A stretch of 64,000 nucleotides of DNA. It comes from Octopus vulgaris. Lineage: Eukaryota. This document shows, in pieces, positions 26,411 to 41,250 of the stretch (position 1 is its first letter; the number at the start of each line of letters is the position of its first letter). The stretch covers positions 6,138,001 to 6,202,000 of the forward strand of contig OX597823.1 of NCBI GenBank assembly GCA_951406725.2. The letters are read 5' to 3'. The position numbers were made by a program, and so were the translations under genes. The notes under the pieces were generated by a model. The model saw only the letters and a list, made by a program, of their open reading frames with translations. It was not told the DNA's origin and searched no databases.

Positions 26411-26429
26411 TCCTCATGAGCACAATCTC

Positions 26430-27335
26430 ATGACTTGAACAAGGTTAAAAAAAAAACTATTGGAAAGTTTCAAGCTTTATACTATCAGCATGCAAAACTG
26501 AATGCAATACCCAATGAATACACTGGACCCGGAGGGATTGCAATCCCAGAGGCACAATCAGTGCGTGACCTGGATATTCACATGAGTGATGACGCGACCT
26601 TTCATGTACATGTTGCTAAACTGACAATGAAATGTAGACGGCTGGCTGGCTGGATTCTTAGAACCTTTAGAACAAGAGAACAAGAAACCATGATGGTCCT
26701 CTGGAAGACACTTGTCCTAAGCCACTTTGACTATTGCTCTCAGCTATGGTCACCATCCAGTGTCAAGTTGATCACAGAACTTGAGGCGATCCAACGAAGC
26801 TACACGAAGAAGATAGCCTCTATGCAGAATGTAAGCTACTGGGAAAGACTCAAGAGATTAAAATTATATTCCCTGGAGCGTAGGCGGGAAAGATATGCCA
26901 TAATATACATCTGAAAGATCCTGGAGGGAAGTGTCCTGAACTTTGGCATCGAGAGTTACGCAAATGCCAGAACTGGGCGCCACTGCGTGGTGCCTAGGAC
27001 TCCAAACCTGCCATCAAGATGTAGGACAAGATTCTGTGATAGCCTGGGCTTCCGAGGCCCACAGCTCTTCAATATCCTCCCGAAGAACCTGAGAGACCTG
27101 CATGGGGTGGATACAGATGTCTTTAAAATGAAGCTGGATCTCTTCCTGTCAGGTGTCCCAGATGAACCAACTTCACGGCAGGAGGGGCAGATGAGGGCAG
27201 CTGCATCGAACTCTCTCATGCACCAAATAGCAGTTGCTAGAAAGCCCCCATGAAGTGAAACCAAGTAGCAACACCAAATGGCGGTGCCCCAGCATGGCCA
27301 CAGCTCATAAGCTGAAACTAGAATCAATCAATCAA
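26430..27335 (+). mobile_element. CR1-clade LINE 3' end, 5'-truncated
   Basis: ORF 26435-26914 with VRDL, WILRTF, FDYCSQLWSP, LEAIQR, YWERLKRLKLYSLERRRER; continues GPQLFNILPKNLR..FKMKLDLFL; 3' UTR ends in (AATC)n. Confidence 0.95.
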
Positions 27336-31489: not shown

Positions 31490-31900
31490 ATCATCATCAT
31501 CATCATCATCATCGTTTAACGTCCACTTTCCATGCTAGCATGGGTTGGACGATTTTGAATGAGGGATGGCGAACCAGATGGCTGCACCAGGCTCCAATCT
31601 TGATCTAGCAGAGTTTCTACAACTGGATGACCTTCCTAATGCCAACCACTCCGAGAGTGTAGTGGGTGCTTTTTATGTGCCACCGGCATGGGGACCAGTC
31701 AGGCAGTACTGGCAACAACCTTGCTCGAATCCTTTTACACATGCCCCCAGCACAGGTGCCAGTAAGGCGACATTGGTAATGATCGCGCTCGAATGGTGCC
31801 TTTTATGTGCCACTGGCACGGAAGCCAGTTGGCTGCTCTGTCAACGATCATGCTCATATCGTGCTCTTTGCACCCCACTAGCACGGATGCCATTCATTGA
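31490..31900 (-). mobile_element. Family D retroelement 3' end (RTE-like UTR or SINE) with internal ~68-bp repeats
   Basis: (CAT)n-CGTTTAACGTCC tail, CTTCCTAATGCCAACC, four diverged units containing TTTTATGTGCCAC-like motifs; interrupts a family E repeat. Confidence 0.85.
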
Positions 31901-32577
31901 ATGTGATTTTCATTTAAGATGATAGCAAAATATACTTTGGTAGACTTAGCTGCTGTTTCTAGTAAGACATGTGACTCACTAGTGGCTCTCGGTACTTGTG
32001 AGATTTTCTGTGATTCTCTACACAGTATCTGCCCTTGAGTGAAGCATGTACAGCACACGTTTCATTACCTCTTACGTGTGTGTGTGTACACATGAGTGAG
32101 GGAGAGAAAGTGAAGTGTGTATATGTGTGTGTGTGTGTGCATGTGAGAAAGTGTGTATGCGTGTGTGTGTGTGTTAACAATAGTATGAGTGTTTATCATT
32201 AACAATAGGCTGCTGGATGTAGACAAAAGAAGGATCTAATAGCGCTGACCTTAGATAAAATAAATAAACTGAAAGGTCTAGTATTTTGCTACCAAATTAA
32301 TATATAATTGGCTTCAAGACAAGGACCACACAGGCACACACACACACACACACACACATTCTGAACCATCCCATTATCTTTCTTTTGCAAATCTTCTTTT
32401 CGTAAAAGAACAAGAAAAGAAACATACAGACAAAACCATTTTGAGCCCATGAGAAATTTGCCTTTTTCTGTTTTTACTTCCAACTCCCAATCCTTTGACC
32501 CGGAACCCCTTTAGCATTCAAATGACTCAGTCAAATTCAAGGCTTTCTTATCCTTACATATTTTGAATTGATAATGC

Positions 32578-34913
32578 TCCAATGATATACTCCAATGCGA
32601 CCGTACGACAGGCACCCATGCCAACCCCCTTTGCTTGTGAAGACATGTTGGGGCAAGCGAAATCGAAATCGAATTGAACCAGCCAGGATCCCTGGTCTGG
32701 TGGTACGTAAAAAGCACTATCCGACTCGTGGCCGTGGCACGTAAAATACTCCAATGCGACCGTACGACAGGCACCCATGCCAACCCCCTTTGCTTGTGAA
32801 GACATGTTGGGGCAAGCGAAATCGAAATCGAATTGAACCAGCCAGGATCCCTGGTCTGGTGGTACGTAAAAAGCACTATCCGACTCGTGGCCGTGGCACG
32901 TAAAATACTCCAATGCGACCGTACGACAGGCACCCATGCCAACCCCCTTTGCTTGTGAAGACATGTTGGGGCAAGCGAAATCGAAATCGAATTGAACCAG
33001 CCAGGATCCCTGGTCTGGTGGTACGTAAAAAGCACTATCCGACTCGTGGCCGTGGCACGTAAAATACTCCAATGCGACCGTACGACAGGCACCCATGCCA
33101 ACCCCTTTGCTTGTGAAGACATGTTGGGGCAAGCGAAATCGAAATCGAATTGAACCAGCCAGGATCCCTGGTCTGGTGGTACGTAAAAAGCACTATCCGA
33201 CTCGTGGCCGTGGCACGTAAAATACTCCAATGCGACCGTACGACAGGCACCCATGCCAACCCCCTTGCTTGTGAAGACATGTTGGGGCAAGCGAAATCGA
33301 AATCGAATTGAACCAGCCAGGATCCCTGGTCTGGTGGTACGTAAAGCACTATCCGACTCGTGGCCGTGGCACGTAAAATACTCCAATGCGACCGTACGAC
33401 AGGCACCCATGCCAACCCCCTTTGCTTGTGAAGACATGTTGGGGCAAGCGAAATCGAAATCGAATTGAACCAGCCAGGATCCCTGGTCTGGTGGTACGTA
33501 AAAAGCACTATCCGACTCGTGGCCGTGGCACGTAAAATACTCCAATGCGACCGTACGACAGGCACCCATGCCAACCCCTTTGCTTGTGAAGACATGTTGG
33601 GGCAAGCGAAATCGAAATCGAATTGAACCAGCCAGGATCCCTGGTCTGGTGGTACGTAAAAAGCACTATCCGACTCGTGGCCGTGGCACGTAAAATACTC
33701 CAATGCGACCGTACGACAGGCACCCATGCCAACCCCCTTTGCTTGTGAAGACATGTTGGGGCAAGCGAAATCGAAATCGAATTGAACCAGCCAGGATCCC
33801 TGGTCTGGTGGTACGTAAAAAGCACTATCCGACTCGTGGCCGTGGCACGTAAAATACTCCAATGCGACCGTACGACAGGCACCCATGCCAACCCCCTTTG
33901 CTTGTGAAGACATGTTGGGGCAAGCGAAATCGAAATCGAATTGAACCAGCCAGGATCCCTGGTCTGGTGGTACGTAAAAAGCACTATCCGACTCGTGGCC
34001 GTGGCACGTAAAATACTCCAATGCGACCGTACGACAGGCACCCATGCCAACCCCTTTGCTTGTGAAGACATGTTGGGGCAAGCGAAATCGAAATCGAATT
34101 GAACCAGCCAGGATCCCTGGTCTGGTGGTACGTAAAAAGCACTATCCGACTCGTGGCCGTGGCACGTAAAATACTCCAATGCGACCGTACGACAGGCACC
34201 CATGCCAACCCCCTTTGCTTGTGAAGACATGTTGGGGCAAGCGAAATTGAAATCGAATTGAACCAGCCAGGATCCCTGGTCTGGTGGTACGTAAAAAGCA
34301 CTATCCGACTCGTGGCCGTGGCACGTAAAATACTCCAATGCGACCGTACGACAGGCACCCATGCCAACCCCCTTGCTTGTGAAGACATGTTGGGGCAAGC
34401 GAAATCGAAATCGAATTGAACCAGCCAGGATCCCTGGTCTGGTGGTACGTAAAAAGCACTATCCGACTCGTGGCCGTGGCACGTAAAATACTCCAATGCG
34501 ACCGTACGACAGGCACCCATGCCAACCCCCTTTGCTTGTGAAGACATGTTGGGGCAAGCGAAATCGAAATCGAATTGAACCAGCCAGGATCCCTGGTCTG
34601 GTGGTACGTAAAAAGCACTATCCGACTCGTGGCCGATGCCAGCACCGCCTCGACTGGCTTCCGTGCTGGTGGCACATAAAATACACCAATCTGACCGTGG
34701 CCGTTGCCAGCCTCGCCTGGCACCTGTGCAGGTGGCACGTAAAAAGCACCCACTACACTCACGGAGTGGTTGGCGTTAGGAAGGGCATCCAGCTGTAGAA
34801 ACATTGCCAGATAAGACTGGAGCCTGGTGCAGCCTTCTGGCTTCCCAGATCCCCGGTCGAACCGTCCAACCCATGCCAGCATGGAGAACGGACGTTAAAC
34901 GATGATGATGATG
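32578..34913 (+). mobile_element. Family D retroinsertion carrying a 5' tandem array
   Basis: Candidate TSD AATGC at 32573-32577 and 34914-34918; 3' end GGACGTTAAAC(GAT)n; body homologous to 31490-31900 and 37998-38187. Confidence 0.85.
32587..34635 (+). repeat. Tandem array, 13 copies of a 156-159-bp unit
   Basis: TACTCCAATGCGACC starts at 32588, 32747, 32906, 33065, 33223, 33379, 33538, 33696, 33855, 34014, 34172, 34331, 34489. Confidence 0.98.
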
Positions 34914-35442
34914 AATGCATTGTCTTGTAACTTCAAGATTGCAACAATCTGATTGTTTACTTTTACAATGACATTGTAGTGTTGGTGTGAGAAGCCAGAT
35001 ATGGCATGTCTGAACATAAAGCAGAATATTTGGACCAGTTGTGGCTGGTTCAAATACCAAAGGATTAAAACAACATTTTTTATTTTTACTTTTTTATTTT
35101 ATTCTGTATATTTTTCTCTTCTCTGTAGTCTATATAGGATTATATCATTTTTTTTACTTGTTTCAGTCACTGAGCTGTGGCCAAGCTGGGGCACCACACT
35201 GAATAAAGGAACAGTTCAGTCAAACAAATCAACCCCAGGAATTATTTTCTTACTTAAGTCTGCTAATTATTCTATTTGGTTAAGTTACAGCGATGTAAAC
35301 AAACCAACACCAGTTATCATGGAATGAAATGGGGAATAAACACAAAGACATATACACACACACACACACACACATAAATGTGTGTGTGAACTGCTGATCT
35401 ACAAGTTCTTTTCATTCTCTCCCTATTTATTGTCTCTTGTTC

Positions 35443-37890: not shown

Positions 37891-38187
37891 CATCATCATC
37901 GTCGTTTAACGTCCTCTTTCCGTGCTGGCATGGGTTGGACAGTTTGACTGAGGACTGGCGAGCCAGAAGGCTGCATCAGACTTATCTATATTCATATATC
38001 ATCATCATCATCGTTTAACGTCCGTTTTCCATGCTGGCATGGGTTGGACGGTTCGACCGGGATCTGGGAAGCCAGGAGGCTGCACCAGGCTCCAGCCTGA
38101 TCTGGCAGAGTTTCTACAGCTAGATGCCCTTCCTAACGCCAACCACTCCGTGAGTGTAGTGGGTGCTTTTTATGTACCTTTTACGTG
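37891..38187 (-). mobile_element. Two adjacent 5'-truncated family D copies
   Basis: (CAT)n-CGTTTAACGTCC...CATGGGTTGGAC at 37891 and 37998. Confidence 0.9.
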
Positions 38188-41104: not shown

Positions 41105-41250
41105 TCATCATCATCATCATCACTTAGCGTCCGCTTTCCATGCTTGCATGGGTTGGACTGTTCGACTGGGGTCTGTGAAGTCGGAAGGCTGCATCAGGCC
41201 CAGTCTGATCTGGCAGTGTTTCTACGGCTGGATGCCCTTCCTAACGCCAA
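41105..41250 (-). mobile_element. Family D 3' fragment
   Basis: (CAT)n...CATGGGTTGGAC...GGATGCCCTTCCTAACGCCAA. Confidence 0.88.

Follow-up and report, generated by a model that had tools for sequence, protein, structure and literature searches.

A 13-unit tandem array in a 5'-truncated LINE copy of Octopus vulgaris, probably expanded in DNA after insertion

An array of 13 near-identical 159-bp units in Octopus vulgaris lies at the 5' end of a truncated LINE copy and probably grew there, in DNA and after insertion, from two inner units of the element's 3' untranslated region (UTR). The array sits within a window of 64,000 nucleotides (contig OX597823.1, positions 6,138,001 to 6,202,000, forward strand). 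In the course of events that we propose, target-primed reverse transcription, as established for LINEs, would have begun in the (GAT)n tail and broken off where the first inner unit starts, with a brief re-copied stutter as its trace. The near-identical units would then have risen in number from 2 to 13 through unequal exchange or replication slippage among them, in the manner of a minisatellite. Expansion in DNA after insertion is a known kind of event that makes a circular RNA unnecessary, and the array is likely a neutral, polymorphic repeat. If this reading holds, the locus is a snapshot of the birth of a minisatellite from the UTR of a young LINE, a useful if unsurprising case for which some 330 dated sister loci serve as controls and an empty allele is at hand for comparison.

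The insertion and its array

The features of the locus are listed in Table 1. As assembled, the array comprises 12 full units of 156–159 bp each and a thirteenth, last unit of 148 bp, which adjoins the unique 3' end of the element. TRF analysis gave a period of 159, 12.9 copies and 99% matches. Deviations from the modal unit are confined to homopolymer deletions in five of the 13 units and a single C>T in unit 11, and small deletions number 6 per 2,049 bp. Set beside a comparison set with indels in 26 of 127, the five affected units of 13 are not claimed as an excess. A first-pass annotation of this DNA had described 13 near-identical units that lead into an ordinary 3' end of the family and its (GAT)n tail; TRF and the modal-unit comparison agree with that description of the assembled sequence, and the 3' end is common to sister copies. 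Independent short-read contigs support both flanks, the left junction and the target duplication, while the unit count comes from the assembly only. A three-unit higher-order repeat, suggested by one homopolymer deletion in units 4, 7 and 10, was rejected because the same deletion is found in 11 of 84 sister copies and its spacing would arise by chance about 1 time in 8 (hand count). No host gene is evident by eye among the open reading frames of the window, two of which were scanned against Pfam.

Table 1. Features of the insertion and its surroundings (window coordinates)
Feature	Position	Strand	Basis
MITE-like repeat, left part (whole about 220 bp, terminal inverted repeats)	32504..32577		20 other matches at 78–82% identity; continuity into right flank; inverted ends
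Target site duplication AATGC, left copy	32573..32577	+	single in empty allele, run X2
5' junction stutter, 9 bp: 7 bases re-copied from unit start plus 2 extra bases	32578..32586	+	junction unique genome-wide at ≤1 mismatch; bridged by a contig of run X1 with zero differences
Array of 13 head-to-tail 159-bp units	32587..34635	+	all of the inner ('B') unit type of the family, LINE 3' UTR; usual copy has three units
Single-copy 3' end of LINE 3' UTR, 265 bp	34636..34900	+	in the tail, states of an older lineage (positions 178, 215) and private changes (32, 242)
(GAT)n tail	34901..34913	+	sequence; same tail in sister copies
Target site duplication AATGC, right copy	34914..34918	+	sequence and empty allele
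MITE-like repeat, right part, split by the insertion	34919..35066		continuity and inverted ends

The block interrupts an older repeat, as had been proposed. This host repeat is unbroken across the insertion site in most of 19 other copies examined, and its ends are short terminal inverted repeats, which makes the label MITE a reasonable one. The short stutter reported ahead of the first unit is likewise present. Short-read contigs from seven runs were examined at the flanks and junctions; X1 may be the assembly's own sample, and X3 and X9 lack coverage of the junction tested. The first-pass annotation had suggested looking for an empty allele in other individuals, and run X2 (organism B) contains one: a single 303-bp contig at depth 51.6 spans from the left flank (record 27–242) to the right flank (record 238–303), the two overlapping by 5 bases so that AATGC appears once. 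The AATGC noted on both sides of the block is thus a true target duplication. Contigs from X4, X5 and X10 (organism A), examined on one side, leave the assembled sequence at this very position and then run on, from which we infer empty alleles in these runs as well. The insertion, seen in one of the seven runs and apparently absent in four, is real and appears to be polymorphic. Run X5 is labelled organism A, yet over window 32402–32545 all three of its flank differences are common to X2 of organism B.

Taken as a whole, the block has a target duplication with an empty allele, the 3' end of an element that encodes an APE endonuclease and a reverse transcriptase, and a fixed 3' end with a simple-repeat tail and variable 5' truncation. 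These are the marks of a 5'-truncated LINE insertion, and the earlier description of the block as one retroinsertion is upheld.

The source LINE and its 3' UTR

In long copies of the family, an open reading frame upstream of the units carries Exo_endo_phos (E 7e-8) and RVT_1 (E 1e-31) domains and a PHD-like finger, and in the longer copies the units begin about 100 bp past its stop codon. Six long copies are 98–99.8% alike over their collinear parts. We read the family as a young LINE that probably belongs to the RTE clade, an assignment drawn from domain order, the short-repeat tail and C-terminal motifs that we take to be RTE-like. Two copies that are 99% alike, L195 and L196, have long open frames of 802 and 923 aa, which indicates recent activity of the family.

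The family 3' UTR is about 850 bp long with three 159-bp units, and usually opens with a diverged unit (A), continues with an inner pair (B-B or B-C) and closes with the 3' end. A 40-mer spanning the unit junction has 552 exact matches in the genome, and its reversed control has none. The first 100 of the 552 matches fall in 61 loci, with one match in 24 of them, two in 35 and three in 2, giving about 330 junction-bearing loci in all. Such a genome-wide search had been put forward as a way to recognize a multimeric template. It does return many loci with varied unit numbers, but what they have in common is a junction built into the family 3' UTR rather than the mark of such a template. The claim that the junction existed in the template is therefore correct in the sense of an inherited family feature (552 matches; three units in 61 of 84 sisters). 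The first half of the counter-possibility named with it, a master copy that already has two units, describes the family as found, the usual copy having three. The argument that simple duplication of a truncated genomic copy could not supply the junction falls, because a 5'-truncated two-unit copy already contains it.

Several forms of the UTR occur at L081, L084, L110, L107 and L156 (G000), with one-unit, 132-bp, 193-bp and 159-bp duplicated arrangements, and it appears from their structure that successive source lineages can be ordered. At L081 the duplication is of 193 bp, and a 34-bp deletion in this form yields the 159-bp junction. This relationship suggests a single likely origin of the junction, in a source lineage from which later copies inherited it.

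Among 84 junction-bearing sisters, a set enriched for long arrays by a search with a seven-unit query, one has 1 unit, 12 have 2, 61 have 3, six have 4 and four have 5. The seven-unit query returned 1,143 candidates, and in the 40 that were scored the next-largest arrays have five units against 13 in the window, which is an outlier in the family. An exact span of two inner junctions has six matches in the genome, four of them in the window array. Two properties of a minisatellite are thus present: the unit derives from a transposable element, and unit number differs among paralogous copies (1–5 in the 84 sisters, 13 here).

Growth of the array

The array appears to carry fewer substitutions than its tail would predict. 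Units as old as the tail should hold 7–15 substitutions, and one is seen. Set directly against each other, the 2,049-bp array has 1 substitution and the 265-bp tail 2 private ones (p = 0.036); corrected for the lower rate of the units, this comparison, which rests on three events, gives p = 0.075, and with one private tail change dropped p is 0.2–0.3. An unseen source element could also have supplied both private tail changes. If the rate is taken from 18 position-ascertained sisters, 6.8 substitutions are expected in the array against the 1 seen (p = 0.008); the irregular loci L055, L061, L062, L063 and L072 were left out of the rate calculation and duplicate loci were removed.

Two expanded sister loci repeat rare variants across their units. 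At L055 (G000:C2:205610371-205611091), two variants present in just 1 of the 84 loci recur in 3 and 4 units, and L059 repeats in 2 units two variants that 2 of the 84 loci possess. Rare variants spread over adjacent units are expected if DNA was duplicated after mutating. Together with the low substitution load of the array, these locus-private repeats argue for expansion at the DNA level after insertion. Clear rare variants across units occur in only 2 of the 10 sisters with at least 4 units, and 7 of the 10 have no shared variants or merely subfamily markers. At L061 (G000:C20:17827272-17828005), three of the five units are full of small deletions and too error-ridden to read, and the locus is probably a poorly supported assembly stretch. 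Hybrid units in the four- and five-unit copies L055, L059, L060 and L062 map crossover intervals, which makes these copies good material for dating duplication at the DNA level.

Other observations argue against late expansion. No private change is common to all 13 units, and the gap from 5 to 13 units is large for stepwise growth. The distribution of the allele among the seven runs suggests youth, and hence less time for ten gains. Short stretches were also re-copied at the 5' ends of the window insertion, L057 and L099, so that the enzyme seems able to jump back. An unlikely course, in line with the repeated template jumps that the first-pass annotation also named, is that all 13 units were written in one integration from the ordinary linear RNA: each time the reverse transcriptase came to the 5' limit of a truncated template it would have re-annealed one unit downstream, about eleven times in all, and the stutter would then be the last, failed jump. 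Such an origin would fit an array of one unit type with nearly identical members and an apparently polymorphic insertion that may be young. R1 and R2 are described with extra and non-templated bases at their 5' junctions (PMC2718515). Truncation in or just before the array, at 7 of 13 expanded and 5 of 17 unexpanded loci sorted by eye, leans the same way (p = 0.26), but the other 6 of the 13 expanded loci are intact on into the open reading frame. An array written at insertion should also match the tail in changes per base, contrary to the apparent deficit described above, and L055 and L059 have duplicated variants of their own. Were the enzyme to have written the 13 units in one event by any route, which we consider rather improbable, reverse transcription itself would seed tandem arrays; the titles and abstracts searched, with most subscription journals outside the search, hold no report of this in an RTE element.

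A different objection concerns the count itself. Homopolymer deletions, which are the typical error of long reads, make up nearly all of the unit differences, the copy number comes from the assembly, and the exact span of adjoining inner units is found at two other loci only. We nevertheless give little credence to a shorter true array inflated by assembly: the flanks, left junction and target duplication are verified by the independent contigs, the density of small deletions is low beside that of L061 and fits a consensus of several reads, and a 2-kb array lies within long-read length. An array inherited ready-made, from a source LINE whose UTR already had at least 13 units, is still less credible. 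The UTR was unstable in source lineages, as its various arrangements show, and the tail differs at four sites from the commonest junction-bearing type. However, no sister exceeds five units among the scored candidates or the exact spans, and the two private tail changes are not found together in any junction-bearing copy among the 20 and 29 loci examined, with 7 further matches outside the comparison. The two older-lineage tail states are common to the junction-bearing copy L141. The idea that a junction-bearing RNA was joined to an older tail as a chimera was considered and is unneeded, since L141 has the same combination.

The proposal of the first-pass annotation, rolling-circle copying of a circular RNA as in a retrozyme that lacks a ribozyme, gains no positive support. 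It would require a 159-nt UTR circle copied by the LINE enzyme after a template switch from the tail, and we regard it as very improbable, the least credible of the origins considered. Many identical head-to-tail units in one insertion are what it would produce, and small circles can indeed form from tandem repeats, as the example of retrozymes shows (PMC7229834). The junction, however, is genomic and inherited, and such an array occurs at one of roughly 330 loci. As had been stated earlier, the unit has no hammerhead: a motif scan of both strands of the circularised unit found no CTGANGA-type core, and Rfam returned no credible match, with two chance matches at E 1.8 and 6.1. The unit has no AG/GT back-splice point, only one sense-strand AG/GC without a pyrimidine tract, and its circular fold energies on the two strands lie at the mean of 200 shuffles (z = −0.07 and −0.44). 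Extra units elsewhere (L025, L058, L060 and L062) copy the A, B and C units next to them or combine these into hybrids, with differing crossover points, which fits homology-driven slippage rather than one fixed circle. If a circle was the template all the same, the locus would be a genomic record of rolling-circle reverse transcription in one natural insertion.

Comparison with known repeats and other family copies

The locus can be set beside several known systems. Repeats in the 3' UTR of Ogre elements (PisTR-A and Lathyrus satellites) and the 3' ends of HeT-A, L1 and CR1 are sources of satellites (PMC7004042, PMC9659126), and they share with the present family a short tandem array in a retroelement UTR that is present at many loci and expanded at few. 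In contrast to the satellites derived from them, the window array belongs to an RTE-type LINE, has 13 units (2 kb) at one dispersed locus in an apparently polymorphic insertion, and forms no satellite. By analogy, the locus appears to behave as do short arrays in retrotransposon UTRs that occasionally expand.

Octopus LINEs of the RTE clade such as RTE-2_OV have a single open reading frame for an endonuclease, a reverse transcriptase and a zinc finger, followed by a repeat-rich 3' UTR (PMC9115989), a layout like that of our family, and recently active RTE families are reported in octopus (PMC13282606). Compared by description, the RTE-2_OV 3' UTR is about 600 nt and mostly microsatellite, whereas that of the present family is about 850 bp with three 159-bp units. 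The literature search found no mention of a UTR array of 159-bp units, nor do the accessible portions of PMC9115989 and PMC13282606 contain one.

Metazoan non-LTR retrozymes carry type I hammerheads in stand-alone monomers (PMC7229834; 10.64898/2026.07.22.740005) and are linked to Penelope-like elements (10.64898/2026.07.22.740005). Like the window array they consist of a short unit repeated in tandem, and target duplications accompany some of them (PMC7229834). They differ in that the window unit is without a hammerhead and lies between a LINE stop codon and the tail, so that it is not a non-autonomous stand-alone element. The family also consists mostly of trimers fixed by the source, unlike retrozymes, and GC content is about 55% in the window unit against under 50% in retrozymes.

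Other copies of the family vary in structure and setting. Inverted 5' segments occur in L002, L090 and L193. Inversions of this kind resemble those that twin priming produces in L1. L094, L095 and L096 (G000:C1:22.14-22.30 Mb) have the same 3' flank in all three copies, which indicates spread by segmental duplication rather than separate insertions. Many of the family copies examined lie within (TA)n or (ATT)n microsatellites or next to them, which suggests that such targets are preferred. Elsewhere in the window, decayed frames at 2–852 and 26420–27250 resemble fragments of other LINEs, the former with only a weak DUF6451 match in Pfam. The LINE family of the array has also left older 3' fragments on the minus strand, 85–94% identical to the tail, at 31500–31830, 37891–38178 and 41108–41250, and at 37891–38178 two such fragments are adjacent to each other.
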